From the NCBI GenBank assembly GCA_027483625.1, contig JAIXUJ010000021.1:20690-84689 (forward strand): 64,000 nucleotides of DNA, given 5' to 3'. Shown here in pieces: positions 7,452 through 45,770 of the stretch (the first letter of the stretch is position 1; each line of letters begins with the position of its first letter). The translations under genes were made by a program, and so were the position numbers. Under the pieces are notes generated by a model. The model was not told where the DNA came from and searched no databases. It saw only the letters and a list, made by a program, of their open reading frames with translations. Source of the stretch: Oxalobacteraceae bacterium. Lineage in GTDB: Bacteria; Pseudomonadota; Gammaproteobacteria; Burkholderiales; Burkholderiaceae_D.

Positions 7452-8114
7452 ATGAGCGAGCACGAATCCGACGAGAGCACGGCGCGGCCGGAACGCAAGA
7501 CCGGCACCCGCAAGGCGCTGCTGCAAGCGGCGCTGACGCTGGTGGGGGAGGGCCGCAGTTTTACTAGTCTGGGCTTGCGCGAAATCGCGCGGCAGGCCGG
7601 CGTGGTGCCGAATGCCTTCTACCGGCACTTCCGTAACACGGACGAGCTGGGGCTGGAACTGGTCGATGAAACCGGGATTACCTTGCGCCGTCTGCTGCGC
7701 GAAGCGCGTCAGATTGATGTGTCGCGCGGCTCGATCCTGCGCCGCTCGGTGCGGGTGTATCTGGAGTATGTGAAGGCCAACCGCTTGCAGTTCCAGTTCA
7801 TTGCGACGGAACGCTCGGGTGGCAGCCGGATTCTGCGGCTGGCGATCCGCACCGACGTGACCCACTTTACCAATGAAATGGCGCAGGATTTGCGCGCGCT
7901 GGGCCGCTACCGCGACCTGTCGACACCACGCCTGCAGATGGTGTGTGGTCTGATTGTGATGACCATGCTGGCGGCCGCCACCGATATTCTTGATCTGCCT
8001 CCCGGCCAGCCGTTGCTGGAGGGGGAGATGGAGGAAAACTTCGTGCAGCAACTGCACGTGATCCTGCTGGGCGCTTCCAAGTGGCAGGAGAAAGACCCGC
8101 GTGGTGCCGCATAA
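7452..8114 (+). CDS. desT: TetR-family transcriptional regulator (DesT-like)
   Basis: N-terminal TetR HTH (FTSLGLREIARQAGVVPNAFYRHF). It is divergent from the desaturase operon. Confidence 0.75.
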   Translation: MSEHESDESTARPERKTGTRKALLQAALTLVGEGRSFTSLGLREIARQAGVVPNAFYRHFRNTDELGLELVDETGITLRRLLREARQIDVSRGSILRRSVRVYLEYVKANRLQFQFIATERSGGSRILRLAIRTDVTHFTNEMAQDLRALGRYRDLSTPRLQMVCGLIVMTMLAAATDILDLPPGQPLLEGEMEENFVQQLHVILLGASKWQEKDPRGAA

Positions 8115-8159
8115 GGTCGTGACGGTGCTGGAGTTGGCCGGGAGGAAACCGTCGCTGCG

Positions 8160-8927
8160 CTAGTCGGCGATGAATAGGTCAATCCCCAGTTCCCGCAGCC
8201 CGTCCCGATAGTGATCCGGGATGCCGGCATCGGTAATCACGGCATCGACTTGATCTAGCTGCGCGATGCGATGCAGGCTGACCTTGCCGAATTTGCTGGC
8301 GTCGCACAGGACGATGACTTTGCGGGTACGCTCGACCATGGTGCGGTTCAAATTGGCTTCCCCCTCATCGTGGGTGGTCGCGCCGAACTGAAAATCCATG
8401 CCATCGACGCCAAGAAATAATTTATCAAAACTATAGGCCTGCAGACAGCTCTCGGCCTGATTCCCCTGGATCGATAAGGACTGCTTGCGTAACAGGCCGC
8501 CCGTCAATATCAGGTCGACGCCGGGCGCATAGGCCAGTTCGTAGGCAATATTCAAGCCATTGGTGAGCACCGTAATGCTGGCATGCTCGCGTAAATGCGT
8601 GGCAAGAAACCGGGTGGTCGAGCCGGAATCAATGATGATATTGTCGCCCGCTGCCACCATACTGGCCGCCAGTTTGCCAATACGGTTTTTCTGATCCTGA
8701 TACAGGGCAGTTTTCTGATCGATGCTCTGCTCGACCGATAGGGATTTGGCCAGTACGGCGCCGCCGTGGGTGCGCTTGGCGATGCCTTGCGACTCGAACA
8801 AGAGCAAGTCATTGCGTATCGTCACCATGGATACGCCTAGCAGGGGAACCAGCTCGCTAATCTGAACTTTGCCATGCCTGGACAGCAATTGGAGAATCGT
8901 TTCTCGACGTCCGCTGGTATTCCGCAT
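8160..8927 (-). CDS. DeoR/GlpR-family transcriptional regulator
   Basis: 255 aa with an N-terminal DeoR HTH (RRETILQLLSRHGKVQISELVPLLGVSMVTIRNDL) and a C-terminal sugar-phosphate sensor domain. Confidence 0.85.
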   Translation of the reverse strand: MRNTSGRRETILQLLSRHGKVQISELVPLLGVSMVTIRNDLLLFESQGIAKRTHGGAVLAKSLSVEQSIDQKTALYQDQKNRIGKLAASMVAAGDNIIIDSGSTTRFLATHLREHASITVLTNGLNIAYELAYAPGVDLILTGGLLRKQSLSIQGNQAESCLQAYSFDKLFLGVDGMDFQFGATTHDEGEANLNRTMVERTRKVIVLCDASKFGKVSLHRIAQLDQVDAVITDAGIPDHYRDGLRELGIDLFIAD

Positions 8928-8986
8928 AGTTGTGTCGCAAATTTCCGAAGCAAAAACATTAGCTTAACAGAGCTGGTAATCAGCGG

Positions 8987-9017
8987 TTGTTAATGTATTT
9001 TAACTAAACATTAACAA
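8987..9017. promoter_or_regulatory. Perfect 10-bp inverted repeat in the DeoR / TonB-receptor divergent region
   Basis: TTGTTAATGT-N11-ACATTAACAA, about 60 nt upstream of the DeoR start. Candidate operator. Confidence 0.35.
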
Positions 9018-9452
9018 TAACAATTTATCTAAATCTCCGGTTATGCGCGATCGCCAGCATTGCCTGGTCAGCTGATGGGCTCCCGTGATGATGGGCAAGC
9101 CCTGCACATGCCTCCCGTGAAGTTGTTTCCTTACGGAAATCACAAATGTCAAGAGTTTGCGAGCCAAATAACAACGATATCGAAAGATTGTGCTCAAAAA
9201 TTTTCACTAATCGAAAGAAATTTGATTATTTTTTGCTAAAACATTCACTTTTCTTTGCTTTTTCTTTTCTTTCTTGTTGACTTTGCCTATTTTTATTTCT
9301 AAAGTTGATTCTGTGAGGCGGGGAAACTTTCGAATTAAATTTGGTTTTGCTGCCTTGCAGAGAGGACGATTTCCTCTGCAATCGCTAGGAGACAGGGTCC
9401 TAATAGTCAAAGGTAGATTCAATACCGTTTAAATATGTGGAGAAGGCGAGCA

Positions 9453-12059
9453 ATGAAAACCAAGAACAAACAGTTGAAGATTAAGCAGGTAACGTTGTTG
9501 ATCGCCGGGATTTTTTCCGGTTCTGCTTACGCCCAGACGGAGGCGCCGACGGAAGTCACGGTGGTCGTGACGGGCTTGCGGGCGGGTATCGAGCGCAATC
9601 TGGATGACAAGCGTAAAGCCGTCAACGGCCTGGAGGTGATTTCGTCGACCGATATTGGTAAATTCCCGGACACCAACCTGTCCGAGTCCTTGCAGCGCAT
9701 CCCCGGCGTCACCATCATCCGTTCCGAGACGGGCGAGGGTAAGCAGGTCAATATTCGCGGTCTGGGACCAGACTTCTCGCGCAGCGAAGTTAACGGCGGT
9801 GGCGGTTTGAATAGCTTTGACTTTTCCGTGTTGCCGTCCGAACTGTTTTCTAAAGTCGAAGTAGAAAAATCGCCGACTGCCAAATCGATTGAAGGCGGTC
9901 TGGCCGGCACGATCCGCTCCGAAACCGCCAAGCCTTTCGATAGCGAAGGTTTGTCGGTGGTCGGCTCGGTGGGCGCGACGGCTGGCGAGTACGGCGGTGT
10001 GCGGCCACGCATGTTCTTCCAGGTGTCGAATAACTGGGATGACCAGTTCGGTCTGGCGATTTCCGCTGCCTCCTCCAAAACCCATCTGCGCTCCAGTCAG
10101 GTGTCCTTCGGAACCTGGGCGCCATTCCGCGCCGTGGCCAATGCTGCGGCGCTGGCCAGTGCGCCGGCCGCCTTGCTCGACGCAGCGACACCGCGCACCA
10201 CGGCGTTTTACAACTATGAAGAAGAACGTAAGAATCTGGGTCTGGCCGGCACTTTCCAGGCCCGGATTGGTAAGCAGGTCGATCTGACGCTGGACGTGAT
10301 TCACGCCAAGGTAGACGGTGCGCGCACCGACAACCGTCCGGATGCCCCACTGGAAGGCGATGTCAGTCTGCCGGTCAACTATACGATCGCCAATGGCGCG
10401 GTGACCAGCGCCACGTTCGCCGGGATTCAAAACCGGATCGGCACCAGCTTCCGTCCGAAAGAACAGAAACTCGATCAACAGGTGTTGCGCCTGAATGTGC
10501 ATCCCGATGATAGCTGGACGGTGTCGCCCAGCCTGTCGCATCAGGTGAGCGAAGTCAACGATACGCTGAACCTGTATTCGTTTGCGATCAATAATGCCGA
10601 TCTGAGCTATGTTGCCGGTGGTGATACGCCGTCCTTCTCGTCGTCCAAAACGAATTTCAGCACCCGCCCGGAAGCTTACGGTTTTAATGCGCTGGTATTT
10701 GATCGCAATAAAACCCGTATCAGCGATACCGCCGGTGCGGTGGATGTGGTCAAGAAGTTTTTCGGCAGCCCGATTAAGGCGGTCAACTTCGGGATGCGCA
10801 TGACCAAGAGCACCTCGACCTCGAACGGGGCCTCCTCGTTGTTGCTGAACAAGCCGGACAATTTCCAGAAGTTCGCCATTTCCAGCCCCTTCCATTTCTC
10901 CGGTGCGCCGGCCAATGTTCCGGCCAGCATCCTGGCGGTCGATGTCAGCAAAGGTAAAGCGGCGTTCGCCAGTAACACCGATGGCTTCCAGAACGGCACC
11001 GATTTTCTGGTGACGGATCACGGCGAAACGCGTAACTACACGGTGGAAGAAAAAACTTCTGCGGCGTATCTGAGCTCTGATATTACGATCGACAAGCTCG
11101 ACCTCAATCTGGGGCTGCGGGTGGTGCGTACCAGCACCGATGCCAGCGGTAACCAGCTGGTCGGCACGGTGCTGTCGCCGGTCAGTGCCAGCCATAGTTA
11201 CACCGATTTTCTGCCAGCGCTGAATACCCGCTACACCCTGTTCCAGGATGCCTATCTGCGTTCCAGCTACTCGCGCAGTCTGAACCGCCCGAAACTGGGC
11301 GACCTGAGCCCATCGCAAACCATCGACAACGGTGCGCTCACGGGCGTGCGCGGCAATCCGAAACTCGATCCGTATCGTGCCGATCAGTTTGATCTGGGCT
11401 TCGAATACTACTGGCGGAAAGGGGCCATGTTCCAGGCCACCTACTTCACCAAGCAGATCGGTTCGCTGATCTCGCAGGCCAGTGTGACGGAAATCGCGAC
11501 CTATCCCAAGCAGCTGACGGGCTTGCCGTTCACCGGTCCGATTTCGTTCACGCAACCGGTCAACGGGAATAGCGCGAAAGTGAACGGCATCGAGTTCGGC
11601 CTGACCAGCCCGTTCTACTTCGGTCCGGAATTCCTGCGTAAATTCGGCGCGGTGTTGAACTACACCTATGCCAATAGCAATGCTTCGGTGACCAGCAGCA
11701 CGGGTAAAACCACGGTGACGGCACTGCCGGGGCTGTCCAAAAACAGCGTGAATGCGGCGATCTATTACGACAAGGGCGGGCTGGACTCGCGTCTGGCGTA
11801 CACCTGGCGCGACGATTATCTGCGCAATGATGCGACCGGTGTGCAGTTTGGCGGCATGCGCTTTATCAAAGCCTATGGCCAGTTCGACTACTCCCTGAAT
11901 ATTCCGGTCACCAAGACCATCAAGATCGGCATTGATCTGCTGAACATTCTGGATACCAAAACCAAGGAATATTCGCTGCTCGGTAATGGCAACAAGATGG
12001 CCAGCAACATCACCGATAAGGAACGGACCTTACTGCTGTCCTTGCGTGGCAATCTGTAA
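9453..12059 (+). CDS. TonB-dependent receptor (carbohydrate-locus associated)
   Basis: The ATG at 9453 is preceded by GGAGAAGG. It has a signal peptide (SGSAYA|QT), a plug domain (VISSTDIGKFPDTNLSESLQRIPGV) and a large barrel. Confidence 0.9.
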   Translation: MKTKNKQLKIKQVTLLIAGIFSGSAYAQTEAPTEVTVVVTGLRAGIERNLDDKRKAVNGLEVISSTDIGKFPDTNLSESLQRIPGVTIIRSETGEGKQVNIRGLGPDFSRSEVNGGGGLNSFDFSVLPSELFSKVEVEKSPTAKSIEGGLAGTIRSETAKPFDSEGLSVVGSVGATAGEYGGVRPRMFFQVSNNWDDQFGLAISAASSKTHLRSSQVSFGTWAPFRAVANAAALASAPAALLDAATPRTTAFYNYEEERKNLGLAGTFQARIGKQVDLTLDVIHAKVDGARTDNRPDAPLEGDVSLPVNYTIANGAVTSATFAGIQNRIGTSFRPKEQKLDQQVLRLNVHPDDSWTVSPSLSHQVSEVNDTLNLYSFAINNADLSYVAGGDTPSFSSSKTNFSTRPEAYGFNALVFDRNKTRISDTAGAVDVVKKFFGSPIKAVNFGMRMTKSTSTSNGASSLLLNKPDNFQKFAISSPFHFSGAPANVPASILAVDVSKGKAAFASNTDGFQNGTDFLVTDHGETRNYTVEEKTSAAYLSSDITIDKLDLNLGLRVVRTSTDASGNQLVGTVLSPVSASHSYTDFLPALNTRYTLFQDAYLRSSYSRSLNRPKLGDLSPSQTIDNGALTGVRGNPKLDPYRADQFDLGFEYYWRKGAMFQATYFTKQIGSLISQASVTEIATYPKQLTGLPFTGPISFTQPVNGNSAKVNGIEFGLTSPFYFGPEFLRKFGAVLNYTYANSNASVTSSTGKTTVTALPGLSKNSVNAAIYYDKGGLDSRLAYTWRDDYLRNDATGVQFGGMRFIKAYGQFDYSLNIPVTKTIKIGIDLLNILDTKTKEYSLLGNGNKMASNITDKERTLLLSLRGNL

Positions 12060-35908: not shown

Positions 35909-36622
35909 TTAGTGGTGGAACGACACGGTGATGGTGGTGCCCGTCAGGTCGATGCCACGGATGGCGATACTGCCAAAGCTGGGGCCTTCCGAACCCTTGA
36001 CGCGGATATTGTCGAAATTGATTTCACCGATCGAGGAGGGCATGGCCAGCGTCAACGACCCGTCCTTGTTGATGGTGGCGCTGGCCTTGCTCGGGTCGTA
36101 CACCACATTTTTCATGCTGGTGTCGGCTTCCAGAAAGCCCAGCACGGGATTGACGATTTTTGCCATATCCCCGATCACTTCCAGTCCGTTGTGCTTGGCG
36201 TCCTTGACGGCGTTCACCAGCTGGTCGCTCAGCCCCTGCGCCGAGGTGTCGCCCAGTTCTTCTTCGCTCATCGCCTGCAGGCCGGGCCGTTCATTGATCT
36301 GCAAGCCGCGCTGGTCTTTGGCCAGCAAGACCGGCGTGCCGATCGCCAGTGAGGGCAGGGCCTGCGCCGCATAGCCTTCCAGTGGTGCCAGCAGCGAAGT
36401 GGCAATCGCTGCCGCCATACGCAGCCTGCGCTGCTTGCGCAGTGCCGCTTCGATGTGCTGCTGGCTAATGAGGTTCAACTCGGCAAAAATGTCACCGAGG
36501 CGCTGACCGGTTTTGCGCTGGGTTTCAATGGCGCTGGCCAGTTGTTCTTCGGTAATCAGCTTCTGTTTGACCAGCAGCTGACCCAGCATCGATTTATTCT
36601 GATTATTCGACAACCATCCCAT
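35909..36622 (-). CDS. MshEN-like (c-di-GMP-binding motif) domain fused to a member of the fibre-subunit-like family (P0)
   Basis: The ATG at 36622 is preceded by GGGGAGAA. Residues 12-35 and 41-64 each fit the 24-residue MshEN motif, with a 5-residue spacer. A hydrophobic segment follows, then MSEEELGDTSAQG, and the C-terminus is FGSIAIRGIDLTGTTITVSFHH, as in P1/P2. Confidence 0.7.
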   Translation of the reverse strand: MGWLSNNQNKSMLGQLLVKQKLITEEQLASAIETQRKTGQRLGDIFAELNLISQQHIEAALRKQRRLRMAAAIATSLLAPLEGYAAQALPSLAIGTPVLLAKDQRGLQINERPGLQAMSEEELGDTSAQGLSDQLVNAVKDAKHNGLEVIGDMAKIVNPVLGFLEADTSMKNVVYDPSKASATINKDGSLTLAMPSSIGEINFDNIRVKGSEGPSFGSIAIRGIDLTGTTITVSFHH

Positions 36623-36752: not shown

Positions 36753-37754
36753 TTATGCTGACTTGCGTGGTAACCCTGCCTGCAAGGCTTCCGGATGAGG
36801 CCCCGGCTGATTGGCCTGTTGCACAATATCGGACGGCGCCATGCCGAACCAGCGCTTGCAGGCGCGATAGAAGGCACTCGGTTCCGAAAAGCCCAGCTGG
36901 AAACTGAGCATTTTCAGCGACAGTTCGCCGCAGCTGAGTGACTGGCGCGCCAGTTCGCGGCGCGTATCGTCCACCAGATTGGTGAAGCTGGTACCTTCTT
37001 CGGCCAGCCGGCGTTGCAAGGTACGCTCGCTCATCATCAGCTGCGCCGCCACGTCGTCGCGGTGCGGCGGCCCCTTCGGCAGCAGGCTGGCCAGCAAGGC
37101 CTGTACCTTGGCGCTGAAGGTGGGCGGCTCGGCGCGTGCCAGCGTGGCCAGCACCCGTTCGCCGCTGCCTTCGGCCAGTGGCGGATTGGCCGGCAGCGCC
37201 ATGACCAGATCGGTGTCGGAAAACTCCATGACATTGTGCGGCATATCGAACTTCACGGGGCAGCCGAAGGTTTCTTCGTAGACGTGGGCGTTGGCCGGTG
37301 CCGGGAAGCTGTATTCCACCACCACCGGTGCGATGTCATCGCGTCCGGCAGCGCAGCGCAGCGAGCGCAGCAGCACGCACCAGACGAAGTCGTAGCGCTG
37401 TTGCGGCACACTGCGGCGCGCGCCCGGCAGCAGCAGGCCGACGCGGGTATTGCCATGGCAGCGTTCGATCGAACTTTGCACGGTGGGCGAGACCAGCATG
37501 ATGTGGCCCATCACGCCCAGCCAGCCGAGCCGGTGGGGCGAGGAGATTTTCAGGCCGATCAGGGGATCAGCCGATTGCGCCACCACCAGTTCCCACAGGT
37601 GGCTGAGTTTATCGGACAGCGTCAATGCGTCGCAGGCCAGACCCTCGCCTTCGTTCAGACCGGCTTCGGCGAACAGTGCATCGGCGGCGACACCTGAATT
37701 GATCAGCCGCGATTTCACGCCGCGCACCAGATGCAGGGCGGACGAGTAACTCAT
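36753..37754 (-). CDS. AraC-family transcriptional regulator
   Basis: C-terminal double HTH (ERTLQRRLAEEGTSFTNLV...LSFQLGFSEPSAFYRACKRWFG) and an N-terminal AraC ligand-binding-like domain. There is a 4-nt overlap with the upstream gene. Confidence 0.85.
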   Translation of the reverse strand: MSYSSALHLVRGVKSRLINSGVAADALFAEAGLNEGEGLACDALTLSDKLSHLWELVVAQSADPLIGLKISSPHRLGWLGVMGHIMLVSPTVQSSIERCHGNTRVGLLLPGARRSVPQQRYDFVWCVLLRSLRCAAGRDDIAPVVVEYSFPAPANAHVYEETFGCPVKFDMPHNVMEFSDTDLVMALPANPPLAEGSGERVLATLARAEPPTFSAKVQALLASLLPKGPPHRDDVAAQLMMSERTLQRRLAEEGTSFTNLVDDTRRELARQSLSCGELSLKMLSFQLGFSEPSAFYRACKRWFGMAPSDIVQQANQPGPHPEALQAGLPRKSA

Positions 37755-41030: not shown

Positions 41031-41801
41031 TTAGTTACGGTGCATCCAGGAGCCTGCGGCGCCCGAATTGACAGCCCGCAGTAACTGCTGGGCAGAGTTG
41101 CTCATCAGGCCATCCTGCCGGCCCTTGTTGGTGACGCGATCCATGTCGGTCACCCCGAGTTCGCGATCGGTGAGTGCCAGCTTGGCCAGTGCTGGCTGGC
41201 CGGCTGGTGGCGAGATAATGAACAGGGTGTTCTTGTCCCACCAGCGGGCGAATTCTTCCACTGAAAAGACGATGTTGCCGGCCGATGGATCGGCCAGAAA
41301 TACCACCCCGTCGCGGATCCCGCGCAAGACCACGAAGTGCTTGGAACCGGCATAGTCGATCGGCACGATGGCCGGTTCGGTGAGCGTCATCAGGTCTTTG
41401 ATTTCGGCGCGGAAGCCGGCGCCGGACAGGCCCAGCGAACCGACGTAGCGCTTCATGTCGAGCAGGGAAAAACCGCGCCGCTCGATGATTTTTTCTTTCT
41501 CGCCTTTTTCCAGCATGCCTTCCATGGCTTGCTGTTCGTTGACCATCACGCCGAGGTGATAGTTGAGCACGGTAACCAGTGCGGCCGAGCCACAGCTGAA
41601 GTCGAAGGCTTGCCGGACGATGTTGTGGTACTTGAGTTCGGAGAACGGTTCGGCGCGGTAGGACTGTACGTAGTGGCCCCCGCCCACCAGATTCTGGGGC
41701 ATCTCGAACTGGTCACGCGGGCGGTCTTGCGGAGTGTGGCGTTCGATCAGGCCGGCACCGCCGATGACCGCTGCCAGCACGCCGATCAGGAGCATCAGCA
41801 T
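41031..41801 (-). CDS. Stand-alone membrane-anchored C39-family cysteine peptidase
   Basis: N-terminal TM helix (MLMLLIGVLAAVIGGAGLI). The catalytic set is present: Q64 and C70 (VRQAFDFSCGSAAL), H155 (SKHFVVL) and D171 (LADP). There is no fused ABC-transporter domain. Confidence 0.8.
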   Translation of the reverse strand: MLMLLIGVLAAVIGGAGLIERHTPQDRPRDQFEMPQNLVGGGHYVQSYRAEPFSELKYHNIVRQAFDFSCGSAALVTVLNYHLGVMVNEQQAMEGMLEKGEKEKIIERRGFSLLDMKRYVGSLGLSGAGFRAEIKDLMTLTEPAIVPIDYAGSKHFVVLRGIRDGVVFLADPSAGNIVFSVEEFARWWDKNTLFIISPPAGQPALAKLALTDRELGVTDMDRVTNKGRQDGLMSNSAQQLLRAVNSGAAGSWMHRN

Positions 41802-42329
41802 GGTTTCAGCCTGCCTTTGCAGTCTGTGCGGGACGCGCTGCGCGCGTGGGGGAAGGGTTTTTCCGGGGCGTAGGGTGAGCGCTGCCCCGGGGCGTCTGGC
41901 GCCCCATTGCTGGTGTCATCTGGTCTCCACTGCTAGTTATTGGAACGACCGTGCTTTTCTTGGGCTACGATGGTTTCCGGTTTTTTATTGATGCCATTAA
42001 CGCATGGCTCTATTCCGCAGGGCATGCTTTTTTTTAGAAATGTGACTCTAGTTCTTTTGTTGCAAAGCTGTGATAGCCGCAACAACTTATTTGCAACATT
42101 GCTCTCACTCTGTATGGCTCGCAGGGCCAAGCTGTTGGCTTTTCCGGTCAGTGCGAAACGATAGACCGTGGTTCAACAGGACTTTTAAGATGGACTCACT
42201 TAATAGCCAAATATTAAGATTTCACGCACCAGACAGTGCACCCCGACACTCCTACCCGGAGCCGAGGACAGGCCTGCGGAACGTGAGCCCATAAGACTAA
42301 AACCAACATAAAACCCGGAGATCACAAAA

Positions 42330-42839
42330 ATGCAAATCGTTAAAACCGCAATCGCAGCAGCCCTGGCAACTCTGGCATTCTCGGCTTCGGCCATGACCCC
42401 GATTCAAGACGCCGAACTGAGCACCGTCAGCGGTCAGGACGGCGTATCGATCGCCGCCAATCTGAACATCAAGATTGATTCCTTCACCTACACCGATACC
42501 GACGCAGTCGACGCCAACGGCCTCGGTGGTGGTTCGATCGCCTTCAACGGCATCAAAGTGAACGGCCTGATCGCTGCCAACATCGACATCCTGTCGAAAG
42601 CATCGTTCCTGCAAGCTGCAGGCGCTGCCGGCGTGACCAACCCAGGTACCTTCTACAACCCAGCCACTGGCGGCGATGTGGTGCAGATCGCGATTCCACA
42701 GAGTGTGGTCGCTGATGGTCACTACATGAACGTGTCGGTGGACTCGATCAAGATGGGTAACAGCGCTGCTTCCTTCGGTTCGGTTGCCATGAACCAGATC
42801 GATATGCGCGGCACCACCGTGTGGATCTTCGCACACTAA
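42330..42839 (+). CDS. Secreted fibre-subunit-like protein P1 (FilA/DUF6160-like, tentative)
   Basis: SD GGAGA. Signal peptide ...FSASA|MTP, then IQDAELSTVSGQDGVSI. It is beta-rich and ends FGSVAMNQIDMRGTTVWIFAH. Confidence 0.8.
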   Translation: MQIVKTAIAAALATLAFSASAMTPIQDAELSTVSGQDGVSIAANLNIKIDSFTYTDTDAVDANGLGGGSIAFNGIKVNGLIAANIDILSKASFLQAAGAAGVTNPGTFYNPATGGDVVQIAIPQSVVADGHYMNVSVDSIKMGNSAASFGSVAMNQIDMRGTTVWIFAH

Positions 42840-42992
42840 ATTGCATGACACTGCGCTGGCTCGCCGGGTCTGTAGCTTGGCCTGAAGAGTCAGCGTAGCA
42901 AGCTGGACGGTAATAAAGCGGCAACCCTAAGATGGTTCTGTAGCACATAAAAAACATACCAGATCTGGTACACAACATTCACGGAGACTTCC

Positions 42993-43502
42993 ATGCAATT
43001 CATCAAAACCGCAGTCGCAGCAGCCCTGGCAACCATCGCTTTCTCGGCATCGGCCATGACCCCGATTCAGGACGCAGAGCTGAGCACCGTCAGCGGCCAG
43101 GACGGCGTATCGATCGCTGCCAACCTGAACATCAAAATCAATTCCTTCACCTACACCGATACCGATGCACTCGATGCCAACGGTCTGGGTGGCGGTTCGA
43201 TCGCCTTCAACGGCATCAAAGTGAACGGCCTGATCGCCGCCAACATCGACATCCTGTCGAAAGCATCGTTCCTGCAAGCTGCAGGCGCTGCCGGCGTGAC
43301 CAACCCAGGTACCTTCTACAACCCAGCTACCGGCGGCGACGTGGTGCAGATCGCGATTCCACAAAGCGTGGTCGCTGACGGCCACTACATGAACGTGTCG
43401 GTCGACTCGATCAAGATGGGCAACAGCGCTGCATCGTTCGGTTCCGTCGCCATGAACCAGATCGACATGCGCGGTACCACCGTCTGGATCTTCGCTCACT
43501 AA
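42993..43502 (+). CDS. Secreted fibre-subunit-like protein P2 (tandem paralog of P1)
   Basis: 169 aa with 6 aa differences from P1, four of them in the signal peptide. SD GGAGA. Confidence 0.8.
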   Translation: MQFIKTAVAAALATIAFSASAMTPIQDAELSTVSGQDGVSIAANLNIKINSFTYTDTDALDANGLGGGSIAFNGIKVNGLIAANIDILSKASFLQAAGAAGVTNPGTFYNPATGGDVVQIAIPQSVVADGHYMNVSVDSIKMGNSAASFGSVAMNQIDMRGTTVWIFAH

Positions 43503-43515
43503 TCAGCTGAGCTTC

Positions 43516-43545
43516 AACAGCAGCCGCGTCAGCGGCTGTTGTTGT
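43516..43545 (+). terminator. Stem-loop after P2 (possible attenuator or mRNA stabiliser; no T-run)
   Basis: CAACAGCAGCCGC-gtca-GCGGCTGTTGTTG, 13 nt before the P3 ATG. Confidence 0.4.
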
Positions 43546-43558
43546 CTCTACACTCCCT

Positions 43559-44359
43559 ATGATGACGACCTTGCGTACCCGCTGGCTGCATGCGCTTGCC
43601 TTGCTAGCGATGATCTGCTGCACGCAGATGGCGACGGCACAGATGCGCGCACTGAGCGAAGCAGAACTGTCCAGCATGCACGGACAGGGCATCGTCGCGA
43701 TGAGTAATACCAGCCTGAATGGTTTTGATTTCAGTAAAGTGTCGCTCGATGCCGACATTACGCTGAGTGCCAATCTGCGCAATGTGCGGCTCGGTGAATA
43801 CACCTATGCAGCGCGCAACGGCAGCGGTGCCGATCTCGATATCGCCCTGTTGCAATTTGGCCGCAGCGATGGCAGCGAGGCGCAGCGCCTGGTGCATATC
43901 GCCAATCCCTATTTCGAATTTGTTTACCGCAATGCCGCCGATGGCGCCAGCCGCGAAGCGATCGGCATGCGCTTCGGTTTCGATGCCATCAGTGGTGACA
44001 TCGGTATGAAGATCAATACCCTATCCGGCTCGATGGCCGTGACGGGGCGCGCTGCCGATGGCAGTACCGTGCAACTCGATACGCGTAGCGATGCGCTGGG
44101 TGGCAAGCGCTGGGACGGTGGCTGCACGGCGCCCTGTCTGACGCTAGCGCAAGTGGGTGGGGTGACGGCAGGCGACGCGAGTGGCCCGAGCCGCGACTTC
44201 TGGATTTCGCTGCTCAAGACGGGCGTGCAGTTCCCCACTGCGACGGGCGTACCGGCTGCCGATGCGGCGCAGTCGGGCGTGTGGCTGAACTGGCGCGACA
44301 AGCTGCAGGCCATCAATACGAGCGGGCTGGTGCCTGCCAATCTTCCCAAGGGGCGCTGA
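43559..44359 (+). CDS. Secreted family member P3 (266 aa)
   Basis: Signal peptide ...ATA|QM, then ALSEAELSSMHGQG. It lacks the His-terminated C-terminal strand and has the only Cys pair in the mature parts of the family (GGCTAPC). Confidence 0.7.
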   Translation: MMTTLRTRWLHALALLAMICCTQMATAQMRALSEAELSSMHGQGIVAMSNTSLNGFDFSKVSLDADITLSANLRNVRLGEYTYAARNGSGADLDIALLQFGRSDGSEAQRLVHIANPYFEFVYRNAADGASREAIGMRFGFDAISGDIGMKINTLSGSMAVTGRAADGSTVQLDTRSDALGGKRWDGGCTAPCLTLAQVGGVTAGDASGPSRDFWISLLKTGVQFPTATGVPAADAAQSGVWLNWRDKLQAINTSGLVPANLPKGR

Positions 44360-45258
44360 TGACACGCCCTGCAGTCCGTTCGAGCTGGTCCCTGCGCAGC
44401 ACACTGTCGCTATGGCAGTGCCTGCTCCTTACCGTGTTGCCCGGTGCAGCGTTACCGGCACTGGCGCTCGAGCCGCTCAGTGATGCGGCCTTGTCGGCGG
44501 TGCGCGGGCGCGATGGCGTCAGTTTCGATCTGAACGGTTTCGCCATGAGTGGCGATGCACGCGTCAGCTACACCACGCCGCTCGGCACGACCTTGTATGT
44601 AGAGAAATTCAGTGCTTCGCGCAGCGATAATCCGCTGCCGTTTTCCGATCCGTATAAGCTCGACATCGTGCCCGGCGCAGCTGGACTAGCCGATGTGGTG
44701 AACATCGCGTTTCCCCTCAATACCTTCGGCGAGCAGCGCTGGCAGATGGCCTATGACTGGGGCGTCACGGCCGATGGTGTGACGCGCGAGCAGAGTAGTG
44801 TGGTGATCAAGGATCTGGTGCTGTATGGCGGCGGCATGCAATTCACCACGCCGCAGATCAATGACGGCGTGGCGTTCGGTGCGGCACTGCGCATGGATAT
44901 CGGCGAGCTGTCGCTGCGCGCACGCGGTCGCACCGATGACAGCGAAGCGATGGTGTGGCGCGGCATTCATGTTGGCGCGGTCGATGGCAGCGGTCTGTTT
45001 ACCAGCACGCCGTGGATGCTGGCCAATGTGGCCTCGCAACCGGCGGTGATCAATGCGCTCAGCGACGAAACCGGGCCGCGCCTGCACATCGGTATCGATT
45101 GGCCGGATAGCCGTTACGGTAGTGGCGTGGCGCCCGCCGGCGGCATCGTAGTCGATAATATTTCCTTTGTCAGTCCGAATCAGCCCACGGTGGATCTGGG
45201 CTCCTCGCGTATCGGGTCGATCCAGATCCAGTACCTCGATATCAAGTTCAAACACTGA
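44359..45258 (+). CDS. Secreted family member P4 (299 aa)
   Basis: The start overlaps the P3 stop (TGATG). ...ALA|LEPLSDAALSAVRGRDGVSF, and the C-terminus is IGSIQIQYLDIKFKH. Confidence 0.7.
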   Translation: MTRPAVRSSWSLRSTLSLWQCLLLTVLPGAALPALALEPLSDAALSAVRGRDGVSFDLNGFAMSGDARVSYTTPLGTTLYVEKFSASRSDNPLPFSDPYKLDIVPGAAGLADVVNIAFPLNTFGEQRWQMAYDWGVTADGVTREQSSVVIKDLVLYGGGMQFTTPQINDGVAFGAALRMDIGELSLRARGRTDDSEAMVWRGIHVGAVDGSGLFTSTPWMLANVASQPAVINALSDETGPRLHIGIDWPDSRYGSGVAPAGGIVVDNISFVSPNQPTVDLGSSRIGSIQIQYLDIKFKH

Positions 45259-45770
45259 TGGCGCGCCGATTCCTGATGCGACGTGCTGCGGCCTGCCTGC
45301 TGATGACGGGCCTGACGCTGGCCGCGTCCAGTGCCAGCGCTGGTGCTGGCACTGGTGCGGGGGCGCTGCGTGCGCTCGATGATCAGGAACTGGCGCAAGT
45401 AACTGCGCGCGATGGTATCAGCTTCGCTGCCCACATTTCGCTCAATGATCCGACGCTGGTGGGCGCGGTCAGCGATAGCCGGCTGTCGCTGGGCTTTAAT
45501 GGCGACGGGCAGAATCGCTACATCGTGTTCAAGAATGTGCGCGGTAAAGTGGATATGTTTGCCGTGACGCTGGGTGTGCAGACGCGTAGCGATGGCGGCG
45601 GCGATTATATCGCCATCGGCTTGCCGGGCTTTGTGCGCTACACCAATCTCGGCTTTGAATCGCTGAGCGTGCAGAACGATCCCACGGCGCCTGTGACGGG
45701 CAATCTGGGCAGCCTGAATATCAATGGCACCGTGTCCCTGCAGGGACAGGTGCGTCTGTGGTCACACTAG
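45258..45770 (+). CDS. Secreted family member P5 (170 aa)
   Basis: The start overlaps the P4 stop (TGATG). ...ASA|GAG...ALDDQELAQVTARDGISF, and the C-terminus is LGSLNINGTVSLQGQVRLWSH. Confidence 0.7.
   Translation: MARRFLMRRAAACLLMTGLTLAASSASAGAGTGAGALRALDDQELAQVTARDGISFAAHISLNDPTLVGAVSDSRLSLGFNGDGQNRYIVFKNVRGKVDMFAVTLGVQTRSDGGGDYIAIGLPGFVRYTNLGFESLSVQNDPTAPVTGNLGSLNINGTVSLQGQVRLWSH

Follow-up and report, generated by a model that had tools for sequence, protein, structure and literature searches.

In an Oxalobacteraceae bacterium, the subunits of a Fil-type pilus probably carry a leader that is cut by a periplasmic C39 peptidase after Sec export. We base this reading on a motif shared by six subunit-like proteins, on its linkage to a C39 gene and on the N-terminus of a native fibre formed by a homologue. 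The window, that is, the whole stretch of DNA analysed, comprises 64,000 nt (assembly GCA_027483625.1, contig JAIXUJ010000021.1, positions 20,690 to 84,689 of the forward strand).

A Fil-type pilus locus

The locus is of the Fil (DUF6160) pilus type (Table 1). Its gene content is both Fil-like and Fap-like, with a FilB/FapD-like C39 peptidase, FapF-like and FadL-like barrels, a DUF2059 protein and an AraC regulator. P1 matches Pfam DUF6160 with 73.5 bits. The peptidase scores 63.9 bits with Pfam Peptidase_C39 (gathering score 22), and 212 and 125 bits with the NCBIfam models FilB and FapD, both below cut-off. The FilC/FapF-like barrel, the probable export channel, is encoded in 82 of 83 genome loci and reaches 272 bits with NCBIfam FilC, 81 bits with FapF (both under the cut-offs, that of FapF being 700 bits) and 33.6 bits with Pfam Phenol_MetA_deg. 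The FilD-like protein, likewise found in 82 of the 83, scores 118.5 bits with Pfam Toluene_X and 407 bits with NCBIfam FilD (below cut-off). By its distribution (80/83 loci, also an Aquabacterium operon), the DUF2059-like gene is a conserved accessory gene of the operon; the AraC gene is present in 77/83 and adjoins DUF6160 genes in other Burkholderiales. Fil-type pili are little-studied bacterial surface fibres. NCBI models already name such a locus; this naming and the FapF-like and FadL-like outer-membrane partners had been missed by the original prediction.

Table 1. Features of the predicted pilus locus (positions within the window)
Feature	Coordinates	Strand	Evidence
Stand-alone C39 cysteine peptidase (FilB/FapD-like), 256 aa	41031..41801	-	Pfam Peptidase_C39, catalytic residues
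P1, major pilus subunit precursor (DUF6160), 169 aa	42330..42839	+	Pfam DUF6160, PDB 9XFV
P2, tandem paralogue of P1, 169 aa	42993..43502	+	
P3, minor subunit-like protein, 266 aa	43559..44359	+	
P4, minor subunit-like protein, 299 aa from ATG 44359	44359..45258	+	
P5, minor subunit-like protein, 170 aa	45258..45770	+	
P0, membrane-anchored paralogue, 237 aa	35909..36622	-	
FilC/FapF-like outer-membrane beta-barrel, 341 aa	39977..41002	-	NCBIfam, Pfam
FilD-like FadL/OmpP1-family outer-membrane protein, 542 aa	38327..39955	-	Pfam, NCBIfam
Exported DUF2059-like protein, 185 aa	37751..38308	-	weak Pfam DUF2059 match
AraC-family regulator, 333 aa, within operon	36753..37754	-	Pfam Arabinose_bd, HTH_18
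Divergent intergenic region, peptidase operon (-) versus subunit genes (+)	41802..42329	.	gene coordinates

A leader motif in six proteins

The six subunit-like proteins share the motif h(-15)xxh(-12)x[D/E](-10)x[E/A](-8)L(-7)xx[V/T/M](-4)x[G/A](-2)[Q/R](-1)/[D/G]G, the slash marking the predicted cut; the sequences and the double-glycine-leader-like motif of the original prediction are indeed present in P0 to P5. Applied to the six-frame translation of the window (101,507 residues), a position matrix trained solely on distant loci, with a C39 peptidase at most about 75% identical, found six sites and no more, P0 to P5, at 36-56 bits; in 30 shuffles nothing reached 15 bits. The motif is confirmed as real, far beyond chance. 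As a propeptide it is built like the double-glycine leaders of bacteriocins, with -15, -12, -7 and -4 hydrophobic, -10 and -8 acidic, G or A at -2, and Q, R or G at -1.

P1 and P2 share the site SASA/MTPIQDAELSTVSGQ/DGVS. In P1 the predicted signal peptide (42330-42392) is followed by the propeptide (42393-42437) and by the mature part from D37 (42438); P2 is near-identical from the signal peptide to +8, with its propeptide at 43056-43100. P3 reads MATA/QMRALSEAELSSMHGQ/GIV, with a signal peptide ending at A27, a propeptide at 43640-43687 and a predicted cut before G44. P4, with PALA/LEPLSDAALSAVRGR/DGVS, has its propeptide at 44467-44511 and the predicted cut before D52; translation of P4 probably begins not at the GTG at 44281 but at the ATG at 44359, which lies 1 nt into the stop codon of P3. 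The P5 start in turn overlaps the P4 stop by 1 nt. Here the site is ALRALDDQELAQVTAR/DGIS, with the leader motif LDDQELAQVTAR at 45375-45410 and the predicted cut again before D52; if its ASA site is used, the propeptide would measure about 23 residues, against about 15 in P1 to P4. The cytoplasmic N-terminus of P0 holds a 24+5+24-residue tandem motif of the MshEN type (as defined in PMC5013675), followed by one transmembrane segment, the leader motif MSEEELGDTSAQ/G (36236-36271) and a subunit-like C-terminal domain ending in TVSFHH; P0 has no significant Pfam match. Its motif had been correctly described as following a hydrophobic segment, but the gene, listed under 41031-45770, lies outside these coordinates, on the minus strand.

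Conservation of the leader

Homologues were retrieved with mature parts only, the leader being excluded from the queries. The motif is kept in them, so that its conservation, on which the original prediction had hinged, holds: it is retained across the 83 genome loci, in 48 of 80 metagenome loci, in representatives of a 1.84-billion-protein library and in Acinetobacter FilA. Leader-bearing ORFs are absent from one genome locus (L073), and none was found in 14 of the 46 metagenome loci of at least 8 kb, with flanks searched up to 6 kb on each side of the C39 gene. With P1 residues 41-169 as query, phmmer returned 68 cluster representatives, and nearly all full-length ones read ASA/Mxx[IVM]xDxxL[SA]xV[ST]GQ/DGVSI. 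In BLAST logos (83 loci), L/M at -7, V at -4, G/A at -2 and DG at +1/+2 are near-invariant, and 79 unique metagenome leaders yield the same logo.

P3, found with its leader in 78 loci, has Q at -1 in 100% of 62 unique sequences, and G (90%) or A (10%) at -2. P4 (77 loci, 66 unique sequences) has G at -2 in 100%, followed by R (74%), G (23%) or Q (3%), while P5 (74 loci, 70 unique sequences) has G (37%), R (36%) or Q (21%) at -1. This interchange of Q, R and G fits a double-glycine-type site: among unique orthologue sequences, the canonical GG occupies -2/-1 in 23% of those of P4 and 37% of those of P5. In distant variants AG is found there. P0 has the same architecture in 66 loci. The AxA site 15-16 residues upstream of the cut is 100% conserved in P1-type precursors and highly conserved in those of the P3/P4 type.

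The N-terminus of a native fibre

Does the leader persist in the assembled fibre? For P1, Foldseek returned a sole match, 9xfv_A, and the 9XFV chain aligns with P1 at E=3.7e-25, its residue 1 opposite D37. In the P1 mature part most 10-residue blocks have pLDDT of at least 90 (range 83-97), and the first long beta-strand is predicted to begin two residues past the cut. Starting with DGVSIAGD, at the predicted +1, the chain comprises 173 residues. HMMER displays two fragments of it (164 residues), both without a difference from P0341, a 210-aa DUF6160 precursor whose residues 38-210 likewise number 173; the first 37 residues, a signal peptide and the 15-residue leader MTAIDDSTLSTVSGQ, are missing from the chain. 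A native fibre made of a P1 homologue is shown to lack the leader. The chain may list ordered residues only, so that a disordered leader is possible, yet it starts at the exact predicted +1. Signal peptidase I requires small residues at -1 and -3; because Q/R at -1 breaks this rule, and a separate conserved AxA lies upstream, the cut is not a signal peptidase I site. An N-terminus beyond the signal peptidase I site, as originally proposed, is what the sole experimental homologue displays, starting right after SGQ.

9XFV, 'pilus-like-alpha', is a native pilus from cave water solved by cryo-EM at 2.9-3.4 A, a helical fibre with a rise of 11.7 A (PNAS 2026, PMC12956863). In the parts of that article accessible to us, the environmental sample serves only to validate a handedness method, and we found there no discussion of gene family, precursor, leader or peptidase. 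A homologue of P1 and P2, it shows that the DUF6160 family builds a helical fibre from subunits starting DGVS.

The C39 peptidase

The residues singled out in the original prediction, Q64, C70, H155 and D171, do not vary in an alignment with homologues from, among others, Acinetobacter, Aeromonas, Polymorphobacter, Cupriavidus and Photobacterium, and the surrounding stretches align with the PCAT transporter peptidase domain (PDB 6mpz). An N-terminal hydrophobic anchor, an approximately 40-residue linker, the catalytic domain and a C-terminal tail containing a leader-like segment, LALTDRELGV, make up the protein. Sequence and Pfam search agree with the earlier description of a single N-terminal helix and no ABC domain. 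The charge distribution is compatible with more than one orientation of this helix; for the probable periplasmic placing, which we share, we rely on the homology with FapD. With a pLDDT of 57, the AF2 model of the peptidase is too poor to judge leader binding.

The leader motif is genetically linked to the C39 gene. As anticipated for substrates encoded next to their peptidase, this gene lies beside subunit genes in 81 of the 83 genome loci, in each of the three operons located by way of their subunits (in Ideonella, Aquabacterium and an unclassified proteobacterium) and in Acinetobacter. Across the 83 loci and these three operons, no other protease gene is conserved.

Related systems

Bacteriocin ABC exporters (PCAT1, LahT, ComA, CvaB) share the peptidase fold and the Q/C/H/D set, and their leaders share the hydrophobic -4, -7, -12 and -15, E at -8, G/A at -2 and a cut right after the motif. 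Their C39 domain is cytoplasmic and fused to the transporter, whereas that of the window is separate and probably periplasmic; their substrates are small peptides without a Sec signal, those proposed here Sec-exported fibre subunits of 15-30 kDa. To our knowledge, characterised C39 domains take G, A or S at -1 (P1 in protease nomenclature), and the Q or R that mostly stands there in the window is without precedent.

Acinetobacter Fil (filABCDEF; FilA-FilD are the NCBIfam 'putative pilus system') likewise combines a DUF6160 subunit, an anchored C39 peptidase, and FapF-like and FadL-like barrels. FilA of A. baumannii carries the same leader (MQSMDDAALSAATGQ/DGINIG) and ends in GH. On the NCBIfam models, however, every protein of the window stays far under the cut-off; Fil has one leader-bearing subunit and the window five or six paralogues, and the window lacks FilE and FilF, adds DUF2059, AraC and P0, and is divergently arranged. 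Cells of Acinetobacter sp. Tol 5 have been seen to bear Fil fibres, and the identity of FilA was established by Edman degradation (PMC3498257). The accessible parts of the Fil literature contain no discussion, that we could find, of the leader or of the role of FilB.

Pseudomonas Fap also encodes a stand-alone periplasmic C39 peptidase beside a FapF-type outer-membrane channel. Experiments showed that FapD works in the periplasm and that its C38A mutation abolishes secretion, while what it cuts, and where, was described as unknown (PMC5557850). Unlike the folded DUF6160 pilin of the window, Fap cargo is a Q/N-repeat amyloid (FapB/C); FapD has a cleavable signal peptide in place of an anchor, and the window channel falls well short of the FapF cut-off. 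The same leader follows the signal peptide in FapE-position proteins beside FapD-like genes, as in Aeromonas (LADGELAHLRGR/Y), and in neighbour proteins of Photobacterium (LTDDEMSSLRGG/F) and Polymorphobacter (ITDYELATMRGG/I and VSDAELGKVAGK/T). Leader and stand-alone C39 genes co-occur in at least three kinds of locus from three proteobacterial classes.

Proposed maturation and its alternatives

The original interpretation is supported by these results. In the pathway we propose, the precursors of the major subunits P1 and P2 and of the minor P3, P4 and P5 begin with a Sec signal peptide, behind which stands a propeptide of about 15 residues. Once they are exported, and probably once signal peptidase I has cut at the conserved AxA, the anchored C39 peptidase would recognise the leader and cut after G/A-Q/R/G, creating the conserved N-terminus DG[V/I]S (P1, P2, P4, P5) or GIV (P3). 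Processed subunits would cross the outer membrane via the FapF-like barrel, the FadL-like barrel or both, and then polymerise to form a fibre; cleavage is presumably needed for export or assembly. P3, P4, P5 and P0 would be cut as P1-type subunits are; in P0, with its true membrane anchor, this would free the protein from the inner membrane.

Could a single cut suffice? With signal peptidase I idle, the anchored C39 enzyme might itself free the subunits from an uncleaved signal peptide, which in P0 it would have to do in any case; the enzyme would then serve as a leader peptidase dedicated to this system, by a logic like that of prepilin peptidases. The membrane tether of the enzyme agrees with this, as does P0, whose leader directly follows the anchor, without AxA, in about 60 orthologues; and in the 9XFV chain, devoid of signal and leader, one cut and two are indistinguishable. 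We nevertheless regard it as rather unlikely, since a conserved AxA at a fixed distance would be unexpected if signal peptidase I were irrelevant, and FapD-like homologues are soluble with their own cleavable signal peptide.

The cutting enzyme, too, could be different, with C39 acting on something else such as the periplasmic plug or linker of the FapF-like channel; for FapD, Rouse et al. discussed cleavage of FapF as a possibility (PMC5557850), and the unprecedented Q and R before the cut would fit. This is improbable: at each of the canonical positions the leader conforms to what C39 domains recognise, many orthologues have GG, the co-occurrence of leader and C39 reaches beyond this locus type, and the operon offers no other conserved protease. 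We consider it more improbable still that the motif, at least in P3, P4, P5 and P0, stays on the protein as a structural or targeting segment, with C39 as a non-cleaving chaperone. C39-like domains lack the catalytic Cys, and the invariant Q/C/H/D therefore counts against such a role. Chaperone domains of this kind are known from some type I secretion systems (cited in PMC5557850), and the structural data concern a P1-type subunit only; that assembled fibre is without its leader, however, and in FapD the Cys is required.

A leader motif behind Sec signal peptides

Could a bacteriocin-type leader lie behind a Sec signal peptide? The original prediction had described such leaders in P1 and P2 (major subunit-like proteins), P3-P5 (minor ones) and P0 (a membrane-anchored paralogue), encoded beside a stand-alone C39 cysteine peptidase. 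All the peptide strings it quoted occur in the window as written; P1-P5 and the peptidase lie within the stretch to which it assigned them (41031-45770), whereas P0 lies outside. A leader matrix of 19 positions (-16 to +3), trained solely on loci with a peptidase sharing no more than ~75% identity with that of the window, found exactly six sites in the six-frame translation (101,507 residues), those of P0-P5, at 36-56 bits; 30 residue shuffles of this translation gave no match of 15 bits or more. The peptide spanning the P1 leader and its predicted cut (↓ in motifs below) is MTPIQDAELSTVSGQDGVSIAAN. As had been noticed, -2 is G or A in the window proteins and -1 is Q (P0-P3) or R (P4, P5), whereas double-glycine leaders carry GG, GA or GS at -2/-1. 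The latter also occupy the extreme N-terminus of Sec-independent precursors; those of P1-P5 come after a Sec-type signal peptide that has an AxA site, and that of P0 after a transmembrane anchor.

Features of the locus in the window, with occurrence among 83 homologous genome loci (subunit types sought by BLAST with mature parts only) and residues of the leader logos relative to the predicted cut
Feature	Position	Strand	Length (aa)	Loci	Leader logo	Remarks
P1	42330-42839	+	169	81/83 (P1/P2-type)	36 unique; 100% each: -15 M, -12 I/M, -10 D, -7 L, -4 V/I, -2 G, -1 Q, +1 D, +2 G	near-identical tandem copy with P2
P2	42993-43502	+	169	81/83 (P1/P2-type)		near-identical tandem copy with P1
P3	43559-44359	+	266	78/83	62 unique; -1 Q 100%; -2 G 90%/A 10%	
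P4	44359-45258	+	299	77/83	66 unique; -4 V 100%, -2 G 100%, -1 R 74%/G 23%/Q 3%, +1/+2 DG 100%	counted from ATG; 1-base overlap with P3 stop codon
P5	45258-45770	+	170	74/83	70 unique; -2 G 66%/A 33%; -1 G 37%/R 36%/Q 21%	coupled to P4 by one-base overlap
C39 peptidase	41801-41031	-	256	83/83		in operon divergent from P1-P5
FapF/FilC-like barrel	41002-39977	-		82/83		divergent operon
FadL/FilD-like barrel	39955-38327	-		82/83		divergent operon
DUF2059-like exported protein	38308-37751	-				divergent operon
AraC regulator	37754-36753	-				divergent operon
P0	36622-35909	-		66/83	60 unique; -2 A 88%; -1 Q 92%	divergent operon; sixth motif-bearing protein

P1 (73.5 bits), P2 (72.5) and P4 (27.6) score above the gathering score of DUF6160 (Pfam PF19657, 27); P5 (24.2) and P3 (16.7) fall below it and are matched in the N-terminal leader region alone. 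For the peptidase and the two barrels the best models are NCBI FilB, FilC and FilD, of an Acinetobacter "putative pilus system"; FapD and FapF, from the Pseudomonas amyloid system, come next for peptidase and barrel. Every score is below its curated cut-off (NCBIfam, bits/cut-off: FilB 212/475, FilC 272/630, FilD 407/970, FilA 45/220), and the Fil-type proteins of the window are homologues of FilA-FilD, not equivalogs. Genes for a subunit, a C39 peptidase and FapF-like and FadL-like barrels are co-located in the window, in 81-82 of the 83 genome loci and in A. baumannii.

The P1/P2 region (42001-44000) has a G+C content of 0.555 against ~0.62 on both sides; most of the remaining window lies at ~0.56-0.65, other low parts being its start (1-2000, 0.479) and 8001-10000 (0.522). 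Histidine is the very last residue of P0, P1, P2, P4 and P5 (35912, 42834-42836, 43497-43499, 45253-45255 and 45765-45767), at the close of a conserved end strand ...G[ST]xxxhxhx-H that recurs in most homologues, A. baumannii FilA and the chain of the cryo-EM fibre structure 9XFV among them. P3 ends in ...NLPKGR instead.

P0 begins (36440-36622, minus strand) with MLGQLLVKQKLITEEQLASAIETQ-RKTGQ-RLGDIFAELNLISQQHIEAALRKQ, in the exact 24+5+24 spacing; the c-di-GMP-binding MshEN domain consists of two 24-residue motifs, RLGxxhhxxGhhxxxxLxxxLxxQ, with a 5-residue spacer (PMC5013675). P0 departs from this motif at the turn Gly, which is K or N, and in motif I, where the first Arg is missing. Pfam gave no MshEN or T2SSE_N match on P0, so that the resemblance is one of motif spacing. 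The order of MshEN-type tandem, single transmembrane helix, periplasmic leader and subunit-like domain is kept in ~60 orthologues.

Conservation of the leader across homologues

The leader is kept in other genomes by three routes in which homologues were retrieved without it. A phmmer search with residues 41-169 of P1 alone against 1.84 billion cluster representatives returned 68 proteins. Nearly every full-length match shows the ...ASA end of a signal peptide and then M-x-x-[IVM]-x-D-x-x-L-[SA]-x-V-[ST]-G-Q↓D-G-V-S-I, and three divergent members read ...LSxDELAxVxAG↓S. The genome set comprised 83 loci, from 80 Oxalobacteraceae species, Ideonella, Aquabacterium and an unclassified proteobacterium, with absences mostly at contig ends, and logos were read where BLAST alignments of the mature parts project the leader position. 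These logos retain all four classical hydrophobic positions (-4, -7, -12, -15), as does that of the metagenome leaders, in line with the spacing claimed for double-glycine leaders; the acidic -8 of the claimed motif holds for most paralogues, whereas P4-type proteins have A. Of the unique orthologue sequences, 23% for P4 and 37% for P5 have a true GG at the predicted -2/-1.

A contig scan with the C39 alignment yielded Oxalobacteraceae only, owing to narrow search patterns, and wider diversity was drawn from chromosome-sized PLSDB records and metagenome contigs. Three of the former (NZ_CP104448.1, NZ_AP026896.1 and NZ_CP119140.1) are labelled plasmids yet measure 2-5 Mb, which is chromosome-sized; such records put the A. 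baumannii fil locus and an Aeromonas fap locus within reach. In A. baumannii, filA precedes filB, and FilA reads MKMFTKLALVSSLAISANAMA-MQSMDDAALSAATGQ↓DGINIG...ITISGH, so that the leader spans Beta- and Gammaproteobacteria. The DUF6160 family, of which this FilA is a member, extends over both classes and probably Alphaproteobacteria.

The metagenome set added 80 more diverse loci (peptidase identity 43-85%). At least one signal-plus-leader ORF was present in 48 of them, and in 32 of the 46 of at least 8 kb; the remaining 14 long loci have peptidase and barrel genes and no adjacent subunit gene in flanks of at most 6 kb on each side of the C39 gene. The same logo emerges from the 79 unique leaders (-10 D/E 100%; -7 L/M 100%; -2 G 90%/A 10%; -1 Q 72%, R 15%, A 5%, G 5%, K 3%). 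In Noviherbaspirillum galbum (L073, 1-10000) the peptidase, both barrels, DUF2059 and AraC are kept and no subunit genes lie within 10 kb upstream. This locus and the ~30% of long metagenome loci that lack adjacent subunit genes indicate that these can evidently be unlinked. A Fil-like locus of a marine metagenome (L114:5231-8242, plus strand) encodes a 1003-aa protein whose DUF6160-like start, AGVTIELDTKITMDSFTYTEDTN, comes directly after the signal peptide. It lacks a double-glycine leader, and for some members, therefore, signal peptidase I may suffice.

The predicted cut and the fibre 9XFV

By the established -1/-3 rule, signal peptidase I is unable to cleave behind Q or R, and it was ruled out as the cutter at GQ↓DG because Q or R at -1 breaks that rule. 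Where, then, does a mature subunit begin? P1 matched one PDB entry, 9XFV, "bacteria pilus (like)" (E = 3.7e-25), and residue 1 of its chain (DGVSIAGDLNINIGSF...) aligns to P1 D37, the residue next after ...SGQ. The mature start at a signal-peptidase I site that would have spoken against the original prediction is thus not seen in this homologue, whose chain begins at the predicted +1 and lacks the leader. Both 9XFV fragments printed by HMMER (164 residues) are identical to P0341, a 210-aa protein of Burkholderiales bacterium PBB6; the 173-residue chain lacks the first 37 residues of P0341, MKFAKLTAVAAILGALSVSASA-MTAIDDSTLSTVSGQ. Since residues 38-210 number 173, the chain apparently extends from the predicted +1 as far as the C-terminal His. 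The deposited chain may list ordered residues only; still, its start exactly at the predicted bond would be difficult to account for by anything but a cut there. A leader cut would account for the N-terminus of this orphan environmental fibre. Its description presents 9XFV as "pilus-like-alpha", a helical fibre from karst cave water with a rise of 11.7 A, at 2.9-3.4 A, and assigns it to UniProt A0A257CJ09 (PMC12956863).

The operon that holds a near-identical protein of Ideonella consists of genes for AraC, DUF6160, three minor subunits, C39, and FilC-like and FilD-like proteins. For P1, AlphaFold2 gives a model that is confident over most of residues 41-169; residues 27-31, within the leader, form a short helix, and the first long beta-strand begins at residue 39. 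Foldseek with this model against the PDB returned 9xfv_A as the sole match (E = 1e-11), so that the fold is otherwise unrepresented there. PDB sequence searches with P3, P4 and P5 gave no match, and the other two cave pili, 9XNC and 9XNH, are therefore not detectably P3-P5.

The C39 peptidase

Residues 60-196 of the peptidase match Peptidase_C39 (Pfam PF03412) at 63.9 bits (gathering score 22). The catalytic Q64, C70, H155 and D171 named in the original prediction do not vary among 11 close homologues, nor in an eight-sequence alignment with five distant ones, and the catalytic stretches align with bacteriocin-exporter peptidase domains in the PDB, including 6mpz. The helix and the lack of a transporter claimed in that prediction also held: the 256 residues include a single N-terminal hydrophobic helix, behind which lies a linker of low conservation, and no ABC domain, ABC-fusion models matching the peptidase part only (44 and 27 bits against 853 and 500). 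Among the called genes of three related operons there was no ABC-transporter gene. From the Sec export of its putative substrates and the precedent of FapD we infer that the peptidase is periplasmic.

AlphaFold2 with the 11-sequence alignment gave a mean pLDDT of 57, and below 50 in the tail. This tail (41034-41190, minus strand; residues ~205-256) contains an invariant leader-like LALTDRELGVTDMDRV, which has the substrate-like L-[ST]-D-x-E-L and lacks a G-Q/R/G site; similar segments are LALKDADMRHVED in A. baumannii FilB and LSVRGKDGLF in an Aeromonas FapD-like protein. To judge from its sequence, the tail could be a pseudo-substrate or an autoinhibitory segment.

A model for subunit maturation

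How might these parts act together? Sec would export the subunits, and signal peptidase I probably cuts at AxA. The anchored C39 peptidase would then recognise the leader, probably helical when bound, and cut after [G/A]-[Q/R/G]; the same cut would free P0 from the membrane. Processed subunits would leave through the FapF-like and/or FadL-like barrels and then polymerise. The leader may hold subunits assembly-incompetent or target them to the machinery.

A single cut in place of two would also yield a chain that starts at the predicted +1; the AxA motif lies at a fixed distance, 15-16 residues, upstream of the cut in P1, P3 and P4, and we consider one cut rather unlikely. Another protease might make the cut, which we regard as improbable. 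Least credible, and very improbable, is a peptidase that serves as a non-cleaving chaperone, its catalytic residues being invariant. We favour two successive cuts, the second by the C39 peptidase.

C39 double-glycine processing is textbook knowledge only for cytoplasmic, ABC-coupled maturation of bacteriocin and quorum-sensing peptides. We propose as new that the same recognition logic has shifted to the periplasm, downstream of Sec, where it processes folded subunits of a pilus, with the P1 (-1) residue relaxed. Already known or annotated are Fil pili, the FilA-D gene set with its C39 member, the requirement for the catalytic Cys of FapD and the 9XFV structure; our literature search found no paper on the leader, the cut site or a link between them, and DUF6160 was mentioned in a single, unrelated paper. 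Hori et al. (2011) reportedly carried out Edman sequencing of FilA. The related protein FilF has been put forward as a vaccine antigen, and the peptidase would be a plausible point for blocking fibre assembly. Fil fimbriae are known from Acinetobacter sp. Tol 5, in which FilA was identified by Edman degradation (PMC3498257; PMC11784438).

Fap-type and other distant C39 loci

Does the leader extend to FapD? FapD works with an OmpA signal sequence, and its Cys is needed for FapC secretion (PMC5557850), while its substrate "remains unclear"; what FapD-type peptidases cut was left open by Rouse et al. 2017 (PMC5557850) and a 2018 review (PMC6173800). True Fap-like loci differ in look from that of the window. 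The Fap system has FapF/FapD equivalogs, whereas the window proteins reach 125 bits against a cut-off of 330 (FapD) and 81 against 700 (FapF), and Q/N-rich FapB/FapC repeat proteins, whereas P1-P5 lack such repeats and P1 is modelled as a folded beta-rich subunit.

At an 18-bit threshold the leader matrix gave no match in six distant C39 loci (Aeromonas, Polymorphobacter, Cupriavidus, Vibrio, Photobacterium and Neisseria). With a relaxed pattern and visual inspection of ORFs, FapE-type sites did emerge in Aeromonas, Polymorphobacter and Photobacterium, and by visual inspection only in Cupriavidus; the Vibrio and Neisseria loci gave no convincing site by either means. In the fap operon of Aeromonas caviae the protein directly after the FapD-like gene, at the FapE position, reads ...APELADGELAHLRGR↓YVSSHG, and the FapE-position protein of Photobacterium ...ASLTDDEMSSLRGG↓FVSIND. 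Two proteins flanking the peptidase of Polymorphobacter (Alphaproteobacteria) read ...PPVSDAELGKVAGK↓TD and ...TITDYELATMRGG↓IRLPDG, and Cupriavidus metallidurans has ...KLDDVRGG↓AEL and ...RLEESRGG↓FDV. Other stand-alone C39 loci thus bear the same predicted leader after a signal peptide. Mass spectrometry by Rouse et al. hinted that FapE loses its N-terminus (PMC5557850); the putative sites in FapE-position proteins fit this hint and suggest where the cut lies.

That h-x-x-h-x-[DE]-x-[EA]-L-x-x-[VLM]-x-[GA]-[QRG]↓ is the general recognition and cleavage signal of the FapD/FilB clade, jointly with what follows for FapE, for a separate branch of processing and for P0, we put forward tentatively, as less likely than not. 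If it holds, the leader would identify where FapD acts on FapE (...LRG[GR]↓), a site long sought, and would mark the Fil-type pilins as well; a Sec-dependent periplasmic branch of double-glycine processing would license fibre subunits for export through FapF-type channels; and P0 would be an inner-membrane-tethered pro-subunit, possibly c-di-GMP-sensing, whose release by C39 switches on or primes pilus assembly. The question of FapD-type substrates becomes testable at a concrete bond in Fil pilins and FapE-position proteins.

Small exported proteins adjoin the FapD-like genes of Cupriavidus (L087:8378-8866) and Photobacterium (L089:7738-8073). They share the C-terminus ...V[I/V]QN[ST]G[NS]NVLIQNAT[IV][IL]N...K and each carries, well beyond its signal peptide, an internal ...RGG↓ site; they may be pro-proteins with long pro-regions.
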